This document shows positions 25,221-61,205 of a stretch of DNA of 64,000 nucleotides, piece by piece. The DNA is taken from the sequence record OP595146.1. One strand, given 5' to 3'. This stretch comes from Escherichia phage vB_EcoM_DE17. The notes under the pieces were generated by a model, which did not search any database, was not told the DNA's origin, and worked only from the letters and a program-made list of their open reading frames with translations. The translations under genes were made by a program, and so were the position numbers. Each line of letters starts with the position of its first letter. Positions within the stretch are counted from its first letter, which is position 1.

Positions 25221-25264
25221 GTAAGCCTCTTTTAAGTAACTATTAAGTTTTAATCTTTTATCTT

Positions 25265-25305
25265 AACGTATTCTATACGTTATACTTTAAAGCTTTTTAA
25301 AAGCT
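25265..25305. promoter_or_regulatory. two perfect palindromes in the divergent intergenic region
   Basis: AACGTAT-tct-ATACGTT (25265-25281) and AGCTTTT-t-AAAAGCT (25291-25305), flanked by repeated cttttaag motifs. Confidence 0.4.
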
Positions 25306-25477
25306 ATTAAATAATCTTTTAAGAGTTTTAAAGTATCTGTATAGTTAAACTGTTAAGTAACCTTTTAAGTAAAAACCCACTTCGCAAAGATTAACACCTT
25401 GTCAAGTACATTGTCAACTTGCTTTTTATAATTTTTTGCAGTAATGTATGAGGTTAATGATTTTAGAGGGAGTAAAA

Positions 25478-30038: not shown

Positions 30039-30230
30039 ATGAACAAAGAAGATAAACATAAAAATGCTGTACGAACTCCTGATGGAAAGGTTCAATCCTT
30101 CATCCTTACAGTTGGTGGAAAGCCATTTCGTTGCCACTGCGGAGCAAACTGTTTTCATAAACCAGATAAAAATGACTTAGAGCTTTACGCATGTAATGCT
30201 TGCAATACTTGGTATCACTCAGAGGAATAA
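30039..30230 (+). CDS. zinc-ribbon protein, paralog B2
   Basis: MNKEDKHKNAVRTPDGKVQSFILTVGGKPFRCHCGANCFHKPD...CNACN aligns along its full length with 29511..29714. Confidence 0.6.
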   Translation: MNKEDKHKNAVRTPDGKVQSFILTVGGKPFRCHCGANCFHKPDKNDLELYACNACNTWYHSEE

Positions 30231-30231
30231 A

Positions 30232-31335
30232 ATGACAATTCTGTACAAACAAAATAAAGATAACTCTTTTAACGTCTGGTCATGCGTTGCTGTAGGTGAC
30301 AAAGTTATTACAACCTACGGTAAAGAAAATGGCAAGATGATGTTTGAAGAGTATACAGCAGAACCTAAAAACATCGGTAAAAAGAACGAGCGTAACGCTG
30401 AACAGCAAGCTCTCTTTGAAGTCGCTGCTAAGTATAAAAAGCAAGTTGACCGCAAAGGTTATGCTTACACAAAAGAATCTGCACAGAATACTGAGAAGGT
30501 AGGTGTGCAGCTTGCTCATGATGCTGCAAAGGTTAGTCATGCAAAGTATCTGAAGTTCCCTGCTGATGCTCAACCGAAACTTGATGGTGTCCGTTGTAGG
30601 ATTTCAAGGCACTTAAGTATTGGCAGTGTATTCACAGCATACTCTCGTGAAAATACTGTTTACAAAATCCCTACTGAACTAATACCTGATATTATGGCAA
30701 TGTTAAGGCTCCACAAAGATGTTGATGAATTTGATGGAGAGATTTATGCTCATGGGTGGGACTTAGAAGATATTGTCTCTATGATTAAAAATGAAGACAA
30801 TCCTGACCGTCATCTACTTAAGTTTTACTGGTATGATATCTGTGACAGTACTAAGACGTGGCCTGAGCGTAGAGATATTATTGAGACTTCACCATTGAAT
30901 GACTTTAGAGACGGCTGTAAAGTTGTTCCTGTTAAGTCTCGTCGTGTAAATTCTTGGGAAGAGTTTGATGAAGCTCATGATAAGTGGGTTGAAGCTAAGT
31001 TTGAAGGTGCAATGTACCGTTCAATCTCTGAAGACTCCTTCTATGAGTGCTGTCACCGTTCATACTTCTTGATTAAGCACAAGAAGATGCACACTGAAGA
31101 GTTTAAAGTGACTGGTGTAAAGACTGATAAGCGTGGTCATGGCAAGTTCGTTGTAGAGACTCTTCCTAACGTCTTTGTAGATGTCTCATGGAAGACTACT
31201 CATGAGAAGAAACAGTATCTTGCTGAGCATCCTGAAGAGTTTATTGGGAAGCCTTTAACGGTTCAGTTCCAGAAGATGACTCGTAAGGGTTCTTTACAGT
31301 TCCCTGTTGGGCTAGTTATCAGGGATTACGAATAA
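30232..31335 (+). CDS. ATP-dependent DNA ligase
   Basis: Start at the ATG at 30232 behind GAGGAA. Adenylation motif I AQPKLDGVRC, later EGAMYR-type motif; about 367 aa. Confidence 0.8.
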   Translation: MTILYKQNKDNSFNVWSCVAVGDKVITTYGKENGKMMFEEYTAEPKNIGKKNERNAEQQALFEVAAKYKKQVDRKGYAYTKESAQNTEKVGVQLAHDAAKVSHAKYLKFPADAQPKLDGVRCRISRHLSIGSVFTAYSRENTVYKIPTELIPDIMAMLRLHKDVDEFDGEIYAHGWDLEDIVSMIKNEDNPDRHLLKFYWYDICDSTKTWPERRDIIETSPLNDFRDGCKVVPVKSRRVNSWEEFDEAHDKWVEAKFEGAMYRSISEDSFYECCHRSYFLIKHKKMHTEEFKVTGVKTDKRGHGKFVVETLPNVFVDVSWKTTHEKKQYLAEHPEEFIGKPLTVQFQKMTRKGSLQFPVGLVIRDYE

Positions 31336-31341
31336 AAGTTG

Positions 31342-31369
31342 TTGACATAGAAAATTTGGTGAGTATACT
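31342..31369 (+). promoter_or_regulatory. sigma70-like promoter
   Basis: TTGACA (31342-31347), 16 nt, TATACT (31364-31369). The -10 lies inside the inverted repeat GGTGAGTA...TACTCACC. Confidence 0.6.
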
Positions 31370-31543
31370 GAGCAGCATAAACTAACAGGTACTCACCAGC
31401 ATCACTTAAGAGTCTTTTAAGAGGGTTTTAAGTAATGTATTGCACGGCAAGGCGATGTGAAGTCTGGTTTTGCATGGTGTGGTCTGGTATGGAAGGATGG
31501 CAGTAGCCTTATAAAAAATCTGCCAAATAAGCTATAAAATCTG

Positions 31544-31572
31544 TTGACAAGTCAGGTGTTATAGCTTATTTT
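31544..31572 (+). promoter_or_regulatory. possible sigma70-like promoter
   Basis: TTGACA (31544-31549), 17 nt, TATTTT. Upstream of the secreted-protein gene. Confidence 0.4.
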
Positions 31573-31616
31573 TATGCTCAATGTAATACAAAATTTAATA
31601 TAACTTTGAGGTCATT

Positions 31617-32000
31617 ATGAAAAAGATTTTATTAGCTGCTGCAATGGTTATGTCAATGAATTTACCAGTCAATGCAACAGAACTCCCAAATGTGGACTTA
31701 TCAGGTGTTCCAGAAGACACTTGTCAGATTGTTAAAGGTGTTGCTTTGACTAATGGTGAGTTACTTAAACCAATCTCTGAAGAGTCTTTAACAGAGATGA
31801 CTGATAAGGTAACTGACTATCAGTATCGTGTTCTTGCAGAGTATTTCCTGCAATCTGCAAATATTAAAGAGAAGCACCCTGATGATATTGATGTACAGGC
31901 TATGCTCAATCATCGTATTCAGTTTAAAGAAGATTTGATGCAAAAAGCTATGTATGGTGTTGAGTATTTCTTAGAAAACAGAAGCTGCACAGGTATTTGA
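31617..32000 (+). CDS. secreted/periplasmic hypothetical protein
   Basis: Sec-type signal peptide MKKILLAAAMVMSMNLPVNA-TE. RBS GAGG. Confidence 0.6.
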   Translation: MKKILLAAAMVMSMNLPVNATELPNVDLSGVPEDTCQIVKGVALTNGELLKPISEESLTEMTDKVTDYQYRVLAEYFLQSANIKEKHPDDIDVQAMLNHRIQFKEDLMQKAMYGVEYFLENRSCTGI

Positions 32001-32001
32001 T

Positions 32002-32214
32002 ATGGCTCTTAAAAAGTTACATCCTAGAAGTGGTTATGGTAAGATAATTGATGATACAGACGGCTTTACAGTCTTTACAGTTATCTGTCAAGATGATTCA
32101 CAGATTGAAAAGGCTCTTGATGATTATCTTAACGATGAACGTGAAAAGGTTAGGGCTACAAACATAGATTCATTGATTGACACTTCACGCAAACGGAAGA
32201 AGAAAGATGAATGA
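32002..32214 (+). CDS. hypothetical protein
   Basis: 70-aa ORF with a basic C-terminus. Confidence 0.5.
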   Translation: MALKKLHPRSGYGKIIDDTDGFTVFTVICQDDSQIEKALDDYLNDEREKVRATNIDSLIDTSRKRKKKDE

Positions 32215-32506
32215 GACTTTTGACCCTTATGCTCCACAAGATGATTGGGAGGCTGACAGAGAGGTTGAAATGGAGAGTTATATTTGTCCAATGGATGTAG
32301 ACGAAATGAGAGATTTCGTTGCACATCGTTTTAAGAGAGAGATTAAATCCAGAGGTCTTTCTCAAGAGCAAGTTGCTAAAATTTGTGGTATCTCTCAGGC
32401 TCGCGTATCCAACATAATCCACCTCACTGGTAATGTCTCCCTTGAGTATATGTTGGAAGTATGCGAAAAATTTGGTGTTAATTTTAATTTAAGGCTGGCA
32501 GATTAA
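32207..32506 (+). CDS. XRE-family helix-turn-helix protein
   Basis: Start at the ATG at 32207, overlapping the upstream stop. HTH: RGLSQEQVAKICGISQARVSNIIH. Confidence 0.65.
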   Translation: MNETFDPYAPQDDWEADREVEMESYICPMDVDEMRDFVAHRFKREIKSRGLSQEQVAKICGISQARVSNIIHLTGNVSLEYMLEVCEKFGVNFNLRLAD

Positions 32507-41992: not shown

Positions 41993-47376
<5,384 letters not shown>

Positions 47377-59078: not shown

Positions 59079-59154
59079 TGGAGAATCCGAAGGGACTCGA
59101 ACCCTTATAAACCTGTTTTGCAGACAGGCACATATCCATTTCTGTCACGGATTC
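59079..59154 (-). tRNA. tRNA-Cys (GCA)
   Basis: Hand fold fits canonical numbering exactly. Anticodon stem CCTGT/ACAGG, loop CTGCAAA, T arm AAGGG-TTCGAGT-CCCTT, CCA encoded. Confidence 0.85.
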
Positions 59155-59158
59155 AAAT

Positions 59159-59251
59159 TGGAGGAAGATACCAGACTTGAACTGGTACACCGATTTCTCA
59201 GCTACTGGCAGTTTAGCAAACTGCTCCCTTACCTTTTAGGGTTAATCTTCC
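59159..59251 (-). tRNA. tRNA-Ser (GCT), type II
   Basis: Acceptor GGAAGAT/ATCTTCC, anticodon stem GCAGT/ACTGC, loop TTGCTAA, long variable arm, T arm ACCAG-TTCAAGT-CTGGT. Confidence 0.8.
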
Positions 59252-59252
59252 A

Positions 59253-59987
59253 TTATTTCTGTAATGCGTTCTTCATTTCTGGTGTTGCAATAGTGTCAAT
59301 TACACCAGTTTTACAAGCATCATCAAACCAGTCTGGTAAGATACCTGCTAAGAACCCATTGATATTCGTTTTAAGGTACTCTGCAATAAGGGCAGCTTCT
59401 TCTTCAATCATCTGCACAACTTCATCTGCATAAGCTGTAATCTTTGAGATACCTTCATTAATCTTACTAACAGCTTGGTTAGCTAAATCAGAAATAGTAT
59501 CAAGACCTTTATCAATAGCATCCTGTAAGTCACTTAATACATCATTAACACCGTCTAGTGCACTGTTAATCGTATCCATAGCTTTTTGACCATACTCTGT
59601 AGCAACACCCATAATACCACTAAATGGTGTACAGCCAACTTGTTCACCTGCTGCACCCATAACATTAGAATAGCCTTTTGCTACCTGCATACGTGAGGAA
59701 AACTCATCAATGGACTTTTGACCATAATCTGTCAGTGTCTTAGTAGTTGATGTAGTGCTTGTCAGACTCGTTGTAAAGCTGTTAAGCAGAACTGTTGTAA
59801 GTCCAGCAGCAACAAGTTTATCTTTTATTGTAGGGTCTGTTACAGAGCTAATAGAGCTTACAAGTGATGTAGAGGCAGCTACGGTTCCACCGAGAACTGC
59901 TGCACCAGTAATAAGGGGATTAGAAAACCCTCTACCGGTTTTTAAGAGATTAAAAATCTCCTTACCTTGTTCTGTCATCTCTTTCAT
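59253..59987 (-). CDS. hypothetical protein embedded in the tRNA array
   Basis: The track ORF extends to 60050 but overlaps tRNA-Phe. The ATG at 59987 (MKEMTEQGK...) has the RBS AAGGTG. Ser/Thr-rich N-terminal part and helical C-terminal part. Confidence 0.6.
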   Translation of the reverse strand: MKEMTEQGKEIFNLLKTGRGFSNPLITGAAVLGGTVAASTSLVSSISSVTDPTIKDKLVAAGLTTVLLNSFTTSLTSTTSTTKTLTDYGQKSIDEFSSRMQVAKGYSNVMGAAGEQVGCTPFSGIMGVATEYGQKAMDTINSALDGVNDVLSDLQDAIDKGLDTISDLANQAVSKINEGISKITAYADEVVQMIEEEAALIAEYLKTNINGFLAGILPDWFDDACKTGVIDTIATPEMKNALQK

Positions 59988-60003
59988 TAAGCACCTTTGG
60001 AAT

Positions 60004-60080
60004 TGGTAGTCCAGTGGGATTTGAACCCTCTTCTCATGTTTTTCAGACACGCGCTTTAACCATATAAGCTACTTGGACTA
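60004..60080 (-). tRNA. tRNA-Phe (GAA), irregular acceptor/D junction
   Basis: Anticodon arm CGTGT-CTGAAAA-ACATG, D arm GCTT/AAGC, perfect acceptor TAGTCCA/TGGACTA. However, there are 4 nt instead of 2 between the acceptor and D stem, and one T-stem mismatch. Confidence 0.6.
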
Positions 60081-60085
60081 TAAAT

Positions 60086-60161
60086 TGGGGTGACCTACGG
60101 GATTTGAACCCGTATAGACCATGTTCACAGCATGGGTCATTACCATTTATGATAAGGCCAC
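60086..60161 (-). tRNA. tRNA-His (GTG)
   Basis: Anticodon arm CCATG-CTGTGAA-CATGG, T arm ACGGG-TTCAAAT-CCCGT, discriminator C, CCA encoded. Confidence 0.85.
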
Positions 60162-60192
60162 ATTTAAGGACTCTCGTAAGAACCCTTAGAAG

Positions 60193-60268
60193 TGGCAGCG
60201 GCATAAGGATTTGAACCTTAATAAGACAGCTTCAGAGACTGCTGCATTGCCAGTTATGCTATACCGCT
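60193..60268 (-). tRNA. tRNA-Gln (CTG)
   Basis: Loop CTCTGAA, D arm GCAT/ATGC, T arm TAAGG-TTCAAAT-CCTTA, discriminator G. Confidence 0.75.
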
Positions 60269-60273
60269 AAATT

Positions 60274-60352
60274 TGGTACTCCATATCGGATTCGAACCGA
60301 TACATAACACAGATTTTAAGTCTGGCCTCTCTGCCAATTGGAGTAATGGAGC
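60274..60352 (-). tRNA. tRNA with anticodon TAA (Leu-type) but short variable region
   Basis: Anticodon arm CCAGA-CTTAAAA-TCTGT, T arm ATCGG-TTCGAAT-CCGAT, acceptor GCTCCAT/ATGGAGT, 7-nt variable loop with no long arm. Confidence 0.55.
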
Positions 60353-60354
60353 AT

Positions 60355-60430
60355 TGGCGGGGGATGTTGGAATTGAACCAACTTCTTCGATTTCAAAGAC
60401 CGAGGTTTTAACCTTGTAAACTAATCCCCT
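60355..60430 (-). tRNA. tRNA-Gln (TTG)
   Basis: Anticodon arm TCGGT-CTTTGAA-ATCGA, D arm GTTT/AAAC, T arm GTTGG-TTCAATT-CCAAC, A1-C72 mismatch, discriminator G. Confidence 0.75.
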
Positions 60431-60438
60431 TTAAATCT

Positions 60439-60996
60439 TTACTTTCTCAGTGGATGAATAAAGAATGCCAACATAACTCTTTCCCTTGAGAATGCTCTTT
60501 CTTCTGGGACAACACTTTTTAGCTTCCATCCAACATAAATTCTCCAGTAGAATTGTTTACCAAAGACTTTAATTGATGGGATAAAAGCGAATAATCCCCA
60601 AGCATTACTGTTCCACATTAGGAGATAACCTGTCTGATTATCTTCAGGGTTAGAACTTACGTTGATATTACCTTTCCACTTAGTAACATCTTTTACATCT
60701 CTTCCTAATACATGGTAAGAGAAGTTATAAGCTTTGTTTCTCCAGAGCCAACCAACTCTCTGCATATAGACACCAAGCTTGCCAATCTTTCTAATCTTAG
60801 CCCATCGTTCGACATGCCCTTTATCACCATCAATTGGGTTGTCATATGTCTCCATCCATCTGAAGCCGAAAGGTAAGTGTCCTTTCTTCTCACTGTAAAA
60901 TGGAACTACAAAAGGTGCTAAGATAACTGCTAAGATTGCTGCAAATGGTTCTAACAAAGCTAAGAAAATCCATGAAGCATACTTCAAATATCTCAT
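60439..60996 (-). CDS. hypothetical membrane protein embedded in the tRNA array
   Basis: 185 aa with a hydrophobic N-terminus (ASWIFLALLEPFAAILAVILAPFVVPF) and a Trp-rich body. Confidence 0.6.
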   Translation of the reverse strand: MRYLKYASWIFLALLEPFAAILAVILAPFVVPFYSEKKGHLPFGFRWMETYDNPIDGDKGHVERWAKIRKIGKLGVYMQRVGWLWRNKAYNFSYHVLGRDVKDVTKWKGNINVSSNPEDNQTGYLLMWNSNAWGLFAFIPSIKVFGKQFYWRIYVGWKLKSVVPEERAFSRERVMLAFFIHPLRK

Positions 60997-61015
60997 CTAA
61001 ATAGCCTCTTTAAAT

Positions 61016-61091
61016 TGGCGCAGGATAAGGGATTCGAACCCCTATTAACAGCTTCGTAGACTGTTGCTCTATCCATTTGAACTAATCCTGC
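61016..61091 (-). tRNA. tRNA-Arg (ACG)
   Basis: Anticodon arm ACAGT-CTACGAA-GCTGT, D arm GTTC/GAGC, acceptor GCAGGAT/ATCCTGC. Confidence 0.85.
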
Positions 61092-61189
61092 TTACCTACA
61101 AGAACACCATACAGTTTTTCACAAGAGTTGTTTTTACGCCTGTTTTTGAATGACGCTATAAACTTTTTTGCAATTGACTTATTACTCAT
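61082..61189 (-). CDS. possible 35-aa basic micro-ORF between tRNAs
   Basis: AGGAGAACACTATG, then MSNKSIAKKFIASFKNRRKNNSCEKLYGVLVGKQD. The stop lies inside the tRNA-Arg 5' end. Speculative. Confidence 0.3.
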   Translation of the reverse strand: MSNKSIAKKFIASFKNRRKNNSCEKLYGVLVGKQD

Positions 61190-61205
61190 AGTGTTCTCCT
61201 AAAAT

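Follow-up and report, generated by a model that had tools for sequence, protein, structure and literature searches.

An orphan VIPR guide RNA in a Felix O1-like phage matches the vipr gene of its relatives

The intergenic region behind the ligase gene of Escherichia phage vB_EcoM_DE17 (sequence record OP595146.1) holds what is, close to certainly, a vrRNA gene, the gene of a VIPR guide RNA. The DNA considered here is a stretch of 64,000 nucleotides, which we refer to as the window. A complete VIPR system comprises vipr and vap1, and since neither gene was detected in the window, there is good support for regarding its guide as an orphan vrRNA. Read with the published skipping code, this guide matches ten consecutive codons of vipr itself, as that gene occurs in related phages. 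We infer a function from this arrangement and consider it moderately probable: the orphan guide would use the Vipr protein of a co-infecting rival to silence the rival's own vipr.

According to the accessible parts of the preprint describing these systems, a vrRNA consists of 9–16 YNNGG repeats with a conserved GGY and a hypervariable NN, followed by an invariable structured tail (bioRxiv 10.64898/2026.04.26.720920). The effector Vipr is a RAMP homolog of about 195 residues, with one protomer per GGY. Each NN dinucleotide pairs with double-stranded DNA, one base per unit being skipped, and binding represses transcription. In phage SUSP1, which carries a type II VIPR, vipr-vap1 is preceded by one vrRNA and followed by three. 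These vrRNAs were seen as discrete RNAs of about 100 nt by small-RNA sequencing, they co-purify with Vipr, their target is mostly a satellite that resides in E. coli chromosomes, and a conserved tail with a pseudoknot is reported for the SUSP1 clade (bioRxiv 10.64898/2026.04.26.720920).

While the vrRNA as a kind of RNA is thus already known, if only very recently, its orphan, effector-targeting form appears to be undescribed to our knowledge. In their accessible parts, the VIPR preprints mention neither orphan vrRNAs nor vipr-less phages with guides nor Felix O1, and the paper on the Felix O1 genome is silent about the element.

The intergenic element and its anatomy

The window belongs to the genus Felixounavirus (Ounavirinae, Felix O1-like myoviruses), and the 2.4 kb around the locus are 95–98% identical in 259 matching phage records. 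The gap between the ligase gene and the gene for a 127-residue protein measures 281 nt, with both flanking genes on the plus strand (Table 1); in related phages the same space can be as short as about 270 nt or as long as about 1.9 kb. The product of the downstream gene has no Pfam match and falls into PHROG 4332 (function unknown). Relatives such as pSJ21, Moogle and Sf17 have a small hydrophobic extra ORF, absent from the window, that separates the vrRNA promoter from the ligase gene (at about 2645–2790 in locus L003, with equivalent positions in L007 and L009). Elsewhere in the window, the minus strand carries a cluster of 23 tRNA genes at 59079–63865, typical for Felix O1-like phages.

Table 1 Features of the ligase intergenic locus in the window, and vipr codons matched by orphan guides
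Feature	Position	Strand or orientation	Remark
ATP-dependent DNA ligase gene, upstream flank	30196–31335	+	ORF of 379 aa; annotated as DNA ligase in relatives
Promoter P1: TTGACA (31342–31347), 16-nt spacer, TATACT (31364–31369)	31342–31369	+	11/12 consensus positions
Inverted repeat GGTGAGTA (31358–31365) / TACTCACC (31390–31397)	31358–31397		8 bp; read from sequence
Leader with hairpin, three ~11-nt units CACTTAAGAG TCTTTTAAGAG GGTTTTAAGTAA	31403–31434	+	Tandem Repeats Finder, period 11 at 31406–31432
23-codon micro-ORF, MYCTARRCEVWFCMVWSGMEGWQ; apparent repeat by-product, not a gene	31435–31506	+	From ORF list
vrRNA repeat tract, 11 pentamers then GG	31436–31492	+	Strongest period-5 signal in window
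Guide portion, 10 variable units	31436–31485	+	NN code AT AC AA GA GA CT TT AT GT CT
Conserved last unit (GGTAT) and 3′ tail	31486–31535	+	Same as last-vrRNA tail in vipr loci
Promoter P2 for downstream gene, TTGACA-17-TATTTT	31544–31572	+	10/12 consensus positions
127-aa gene with signal-peptide-like N-terminus, downstream flank	31617–32000	+	ORF
Orphan guides of window and Felix O1 types	vipr codons 157–166	sense (window guide)	20/20
Orphan guide of EC6 type	vipr codons 14–21	antisense	16/16
Orphan guide of JH2 type	vipr codons 2–10 and start codon	antisense	17/18
Orphan guide of GEP101	vipr codons 157–166		19/20 over first ten units
Orphan guide of L030	vipr codon 34 onward		0.83; suggestive, not counted
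Orphan guide of RPN213	vipr codon 121 onward		0.82; suggestive, not counted

Directly behind the ligase gene, a first-pass annotation of this DNA had placed a strong promoter, and P1 is indeed found there as described, being the best promoter-like site between 29 and 34 kb. Promoter-like sites as a class do not exceed chance in the region (10 found versus 14.6 ± 4.0 expected); P1 is therefore supported by its near-invariance across 42 related loci and not by the abundance of such sites. Its core, AATTTGGTGAGTATRCTGAGCAKCAT, is present in all Ounavirinae loci examined, whether they carry vipr or not, and standard sigma-70 spacing would put its start site at about 31376. A second promoter-like site had been assigned to the next gene and is likewise present: P2 is kept in every locus and delimits the VIPR locus on the 3′ side, and in the window P1 leads directly to P2 in 213 nt.

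The stem that had been placed after the promoter has to be moved. The 5′ arm of this inverted repeat overlaps the −10 hexamer and lies upstream of the expected start, so that the stem cannot belong to an RNA begun at P1. The repeat is conserved in all relatives without informative covariation and might act as an operator or fold within ligase mRNA that reads through. As an operator it might serve, for example, the Cro/CI-type HTH protein that is encoded at 32207–32506 (Pfam HTH_3, E 5e-10).

The cttttaag motifs and the G/T-rich stretch reported behind P1 are also there, and the latter is a strict 5-nt repeat, a regularity that had been overlooked. Its units are TGTAT, TGCAC, GGCAA, GGCGA, TGTGA, AGTCT, GGTTT, TGCAT, GGTGT, GGTCT and GGTAT. 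They share the form (G/T/A)-G-Y-N-N: position 2 is a G and position 3 a pyrimidine in 11/11 units, and position 1 is a G in 7/11. When the period-5 signal of G was compared over 60-nt stretches on both strands of the 64-kb window, the tract came out highest: it reaches 2.49, where the mean is 0.16 and the 99.9th percentile 1.15.

Upstream of the repeats lies a leader whose 20-nt core is unique in the window. Every vrRNA in the clade has a leader of this kind in front of it; relatives also use another type, TTTTTAAAAGGTCTTTAARAGGGTCTTTTAAT, in which the bases differ and the pairing is preserved. Downstream, the tail contains a stem TGGCAG (31498–31503) / CTGCCA (31520–31525) with an A-rich loop, TAGCCTTATAAAAAAT, and the loop segment AGCCTTAT (31505–31512) could pair with ATAAGCT (31527–31533) as a candidate pseudoknot. 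In vipr-carrying loci, the last vrRNA ends in exactly this tail. Other tail types keep the stem by compensating arms, namely GGTAG/CTACC, TAATCG/CGATTA and TAGTCTCA/TGAGACT. Both the leader hairpin and the tail hairpin are part of the minimum-energy fold, and fold stability is somewhat higher than that of shuffled sequence (z = −2.17).

An 8-mer from the leader core, CTTTTAAG, occurs 15 times in the window, where 5.06 ± 2.43 copies are expected and 0/100 shuffles reach that number. Three of the copies cluster in an AT-rich divergent region directly upstream of the DNA polymerase gene (25229–25369), in which Tandem Repeats Finder also reports a 21-nt repeat (25295–25338). A phage regulator may bind at this 8-mer.

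Homology to VIPR loci and the absence of vipr

How can a repeat of this kind be assigned to a system? An IMG/VR scan for (GGTNN)7GGT returned at least 120 contigs, many of them unrelated to Felix O1 and of 38–60% GC, with degenerate non-coding arrays that are co-oriented with the flanking genes and stand up to 18 in tandem. An all-against-all comparison of neighbouring ORFs identified a family of proteins of about 195 residues that directly adjoins the arrays in 46 of 77 loci; the ORF that comes first in the insert of long Ounavirinae loci is one of its members. This array-linked protein has no Pfam match and corresponds to PHROG 4652 (function unknown); against PDB entry 36pp_D ("SUSP1 Vipr protein") it gives an E of 1.5e-127.

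In the long loci of relatives one module, composed of a leader, 9–18 pentamers and a hairpin, is present up to 6 times. The module hairpin has a conserved A-rich loop, and its arms vary between copies yet stay complementary. All 27 of the 27 arrays first collected from related loci have a length of 5k+3, from which it follows that there is no phase-breaking indel. Among 299 pentamers of relatives, G occupies the first position in 79% and the second in 99%, the third is either T (90%) or C (10%), and the fourth and fifth take any of the four bases; the window pentamers have the same register and profile. Between phages with about 95% identical flanks the arrays cannot be aligned, and it is the NN that differs. 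For SUSP1 vrRNA1 we count 12 units, in agreement with the structure paper in its accessible part (bioRxiv 10.64898/2026.04.26.720927).

The window element shares with the type II vrRNAs of SUSP1 the slot between the ligase gene and the 127-aa gene, the promoter, the leader, the YNNGG register and an identical tail, as well as the 1-nt-skip code with the skipped base on wobble positions. It differs in that its phage is without vipr or vap1, in that a single vrRNA is present instead of 3–6, and in that the first G is less well kept. Its target is also a different one, namely vipr itself, whereas vipr-linked guides target the E. coli satellite.

Could the transcript nevertheless be of a more ordinary kind? 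A regulatory RNA or 5′ leader of the downstream operon unrelated to VIPR, be it an attenuator, a terminator or a generic small RNA, would suit an intergenic position with two promoters and a fold somewhat stabler than shuffled sequence, but we hold it to be very improbable. With Rfam 15, only tRNAs reach the gathering score in the window, and neither 31300–31650 nor five array-rich loci give a meaningful match even at E up to 10. No terminator-like site was found in the region, and the repeat anatomy and locus homology are specific to VIPR. The first-pass annotation had reserved P1 for a short transcript, either non-coding or coding for a micro-peptide. Homology to SUSP1 speaks for the non-coding version, and the peptide version finds no support in its reading frame. 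The 23-codon ORF does exist, open in the window and with an ATG after a purine-rich stretch, although it is not the sole small ORF as had been thought (a GTG ORF of 26 aa lies at 31457–31537). In Felix O1, however, its frame reads ATG TAT TGC ACG GTA AGG TGA and stops after 6 codons, in other copies the stop comes after 6–10 codons, and in some the ATG is replaced by AGG or TTG. The composition rich in Cys, Trp and Gly follows from the GGY-NN repeats. The micro-ORF, as far as comparison of sequences can tell, is an artefact of the repeats whose frame is not conserved as that of a small protein would be, and we give next to no credence to a Cys/Trp-rich peptide of 23 aa as the product.

The protein partners of the guide were searched for in the window and beyond. 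In the window, tblastn finds no homolog of Vipr (best E 3.3) and none of Vap1 (best E 0.58). The complete genome of the nearest relative, Ro111lw, contains no Vipr either by tblastn or by a profile from 48 Vipr homologs, and no Vap1 (best tblastn E 0.78). About half of the related phages carry vipr, vap1 and up to six vrRNAs at the same locus: vipr is present in 118 Ounavirinae records, always at this one locus, and a contiguous vipr-less locus is found in about 111 phage records. With no vipr or vap1 in its phage, an orphan vrRNA can act only with Vipr from another element.

Across 42 parsed loci there are 17 unique orphan guides and 59 unique vipr-linked guides, and none is shared between the two groups. 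The first G of the units is present in 67% of cases in orphan arrays compared to 79% in vipr-linked ones (p 0.044), which could reflect relaxed constraint. A separate group is formed by vipr-less Felixounavirus loci with two vrRNAs (L137/L140 from UAB_Phi87, L146, L153 and L157), whose guides resemble satellite-type guides. Unlike the single anti-vipr orphans, these loci look like plain remnants of a vipr-vap1 deletion.

Two side observations concern the variability of the locus. In O157 typing phage 15 (KP869113, locus L136) a run of N extends exactly across the vrRNA and vipr locus, suggesting that the repeats break short-read assemblies. Among derivatives of VpaE1, LR597663 (VpaE1_ev78) has a solo guide of the window type and no cassette, and LR699048 and LR597658 (VpaE1_ev035 and VpaE1_ev108) carry vipr. 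This difference suggests that the locus is swappable between closely related or laboratory-evolved phages.

The code of the guide and its matches in vipr

Guides were compared to possible targets with our own scanner for the published 1-nt-skip rule, in which matches are scored as the share of NN positions. As a control, 10 of 24 vipr-linked guides match the E. coli satellite at 79–93% of NN positions (19–27 of 20–30). These scores lie above the shuffled maxima (16–23) for nine of the ten guides and equal the maximum for one, reproducing the published targeting of the satellite.

By the same rule the window guide reads xATxACxAAxGAxGAxCTxTTxATxGTxCT, which corresponds to a stretch of vipr encoding ITKEELLMVL (Table 1), with each skipped base on the wobble position, that is, codon position 3. 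The complete match holds for 8 of 19 vipr alleles, and 0/200 shuffles of the unit order reach the score of the guide. In 2.9 million IMG/VR viral contigs the exact 10-unit pattern has 8 matches, all in vipr. Seven of them lie in complete, intact vipr ORFs, including those assigned to SUSP1, wV8 and Moogle; at the eighth (assigned to SUSP2) the locus is too short for the whole gene, and the flanking translation is that of Vipr. The pattern has no match in 185,579 bacterial and archaeal genomes (596 Gb). Against the E. coli satellite L138, the window guide scores 15/22, which is inside the shuffled range, and against the window itself and Ro111lw it stays at a background level of at most 17/22.

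The window guide is not alone in this respect (Table 1). A match to vipr is counted for 4 of the 17 orphan guides, and 0 of the 59 vipr-linked ones exceed 0.70 against vipr (Fisher p 0.0019). When the 24 guides of eight vipr-carrying loci were scored against their own locus, none exceeded 0.73, and none matches the window. No significant match was obtained for the SP2 guide, the second UAB_Phi87 guide and both L146 guides. The first UAB_Phi87 guide reaches 19/22 in satellite L138, a score that only equals its shuffled maximum, and the remaining orphan guides of two-vrRNA loci were scored against vipr only. L138 contains no vrRNA array.

A further observation concerns the satellite itself. A baseplate-type gene on the minus strand of the window (44352–45149) has up to 94% DNA identity over about 68% of its length to an E. 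coli chromosomal gene, a counterpart that is present in 474 of 5,426 complete E. coli genomes. In strain EC25 the counterpart belongs to an island, about 13 kb in size, where genes of the tape-measure, baseplate, HNH and serine-recombinase types are found. This island is inserted in a DUF72 gene next to yecD, and it is the satellite targeted by vipr-linked guides.

If orphan guides act on vipr, both sides might bear traces of it. Among 19 vipr alleles, 14 sites vary at codon position 1 or 2, and 9 of these 14 fall within the 27 codons targeted by orphan guides (binomial p 1.9e-5). Wobble sites are not enriched in the targeted codons (13 of 71, with 9.8 expected), and the enrichment at positions 1 and 2 relative to wobble has a Fisher odds ratio of 8 (p 0.001). 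The family of the window guide comprises 46 phage records, among them 29 Salmonella phages and 15 Escherichia phages. Its nine sequenced variants differ in the NN of unit 3 (AA/AG/CG), unit 6 (CT/AT) and unit 7 (TT/CT). Base for base, these differences equal vipr polymorphisms at codons 159 (AAA/AGA/CGA), 162 (CTC/ATC) and 163 (TTG/CTG), and several guide variants have a perfectly matching partner among the vipr alleles. Since vipr alleles and guide variants are each related by descent, the statistics overstate their independence. The pattern may be read as signs of an ongoing interaction; alternatively, the match between variants could stem from each orphan's own vipr-carrying ancestor.

Possible function and comparison to known systems

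How might a guide without an effector be of use to its phage? In the proposed course of events, host RNA polymerase would start at P1 and produce a transcript of leader hairpin, 11 GGY-NN pentamers and structured 3′ tail. By analogy with SUSP1 the transcript would be trimmed to about 100 nt, where processing of a 5′ leader of about 60 nt is assumed. In complete systems, a Vipr filament presents the NN, pairing with dsDNA skips every third base, and transcription is blocked by the bound complex. During co-infection with a vipr-carrying relative, the orphan RNA would then load into the rival's Vipr and lead it onto the rival's own vipr gene, and the rival's vipr-vap1-vrRNA operon would be shut down, perhaps together with downstream genes of the same transcription unit. 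The vipr cassette is the sole target at which a vipr-less phage would not hit its own DNA as well, and Vipr comes only with the rival.

Any gain in fitness from such silencing would be conditional, as the rivals' own guides target the satellite and not the window phage. It would help only where the rival also suffers from the roadblock or then takes greater damage from the satellite. Whether vipr-less phages keep the single guide as a protein-free weapon, in an arms race in which the guide-read codon positions of vipr change and guide alleles follow, is a question on which we are evenly divided. The somewhat degenerate first G of the orphan units and the satellite-type deletion remnants at the locus could count against a functional reading.

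Both features would be at home in a relic of self-targeting, in which a vipr-carrying ancestor gained a guide directed at vipr itself and had its system silenced, the cassette was lost via recombination between leaders, and the vrRNA that stayed behind is functionless. We regard this history as rather unlikely, yet it has several points on its side: the orphan combines the promoter and leader of a first vrRNA with the tail of a last vrRNA, just as an inter-leader deletion would give, and no vipr-carrying genome has an anti-vipr guide, as expected if the combination is unstable. What it explains less well is that at least three independent families of anti-vipr guides occur in vipr-less genomes, that promoter, second G, pyrimidine and tail are all intact, and that several guide variants perfectly match a vipr allele that is still alive. 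The concentration of non-wobble vipr variation in the targeted codons would moreover need continued pressure on vipr-carrying phages, and partly matching guides of an escape type are absent from vipr-carrying genomes, where the maximum is 0.70. An RNA that merely titrates the rival's Vipr off the rival's guides, with an irrelevant NN code, would also keep the GGY motifs and the tail, both recognised by Vipr, and it has an analogy in RNA anti-CRISPRs. Such a sponge, however, needs neither a 20/20 match to vipr nor NN variants that track vipr alleles, and we think it improbable.

Several other candidates were tried for the repeat tract and rejected. An R-loop replication origin or a cluster of primase sites was set aside, as GC skew follows the direction of transcription without any feature at 31.4 kb; the motifs of Chi, KOPS or BREX decoys do not fit the pentamer register; and G-quadruplexes leave the conserved pyrimidine unexplained. 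A boxA/nut-like antitermination site, a C-rich Rho-loading site on the minus strand and a TRAP-like ring-binding site were dropped as well. The TRAP sites of the Bacillus trp leader, with triplets 2–3 nt apart, do share the 5-nt period and a triplet held per oligomer subunit. The likeness is one of layout only: the motif here is GGY in place of GAG/UAG, the proteins are folded differently, and information is carried by the spacer bases.

The proposed use of a rival's Vipr by an orphan guide has parallels in other conflicts. Virus-borne mini-CRISPR arrays and RNA anti-CRISPRs are cases in which the virus carries the RNA part only and the effector is made by the host; the foreign effector is either used to attack close relatives or disabled. 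Effector family, RNA architecture and recognition code all differ from those discussed here, where the effector would come from a rival phage. Within the VIPR world, the preprint in its accessible part describes satellite vrRNAs aimed at other satellites and, in a Pseudomonas fulva clade, guides aimed at other VIPR systems (bioRxiv 10.64898/2026.04.26.720920). The window guide shares with these the use in conflicts between mobile elements. It differs from them in that its carrier is a full lytic phage that has lost the effector or never had it, and in that it is aimed at the effector gene of the carrier's closest relatives.

What would follow if orphan guides work in trans? They would constitute a counter-measure to VIPR and explain where vipr varies, and they would offer a simple test system of one small RNA, a 20-kDa protein and a known target. 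If true, this would be the first anti-VIPR mechanism, an RNA-guided system disabled by a guide that the opponent supplies. Independently of function, roughly half of the Felix O1-like phages, Felix O1 included, carry orphan guides, and where such a guide stands alone it is mostly directed against the effector gene of vipr-carrying relatives. The annotation of a conserved "empty" intergenic region is thereby settled for a group of classic typing and therapeutic phages. VIPR was found (2026) by protein search, to which genomes with a guide only are invisible.

The array scan also returned material beyond the Vipr family. A second family of proteins, of about 165 aa (PHROG 15946, no Pfam match), stands beside degenerate GGYNN arrays in 8 unrelated viral contigs (L027, L068, L108, L110, L031, L045, L117 and L121) and probably represents another VIPR type. 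Up to 18 arrays stand in tandem, in L068, and L119 contains 13 within a stretch of 14.6 kb. In the viral contigs L114 and L126, GGYNN arrays are directly followed by a tRNA-like sequence (…ggttcgattcc…).
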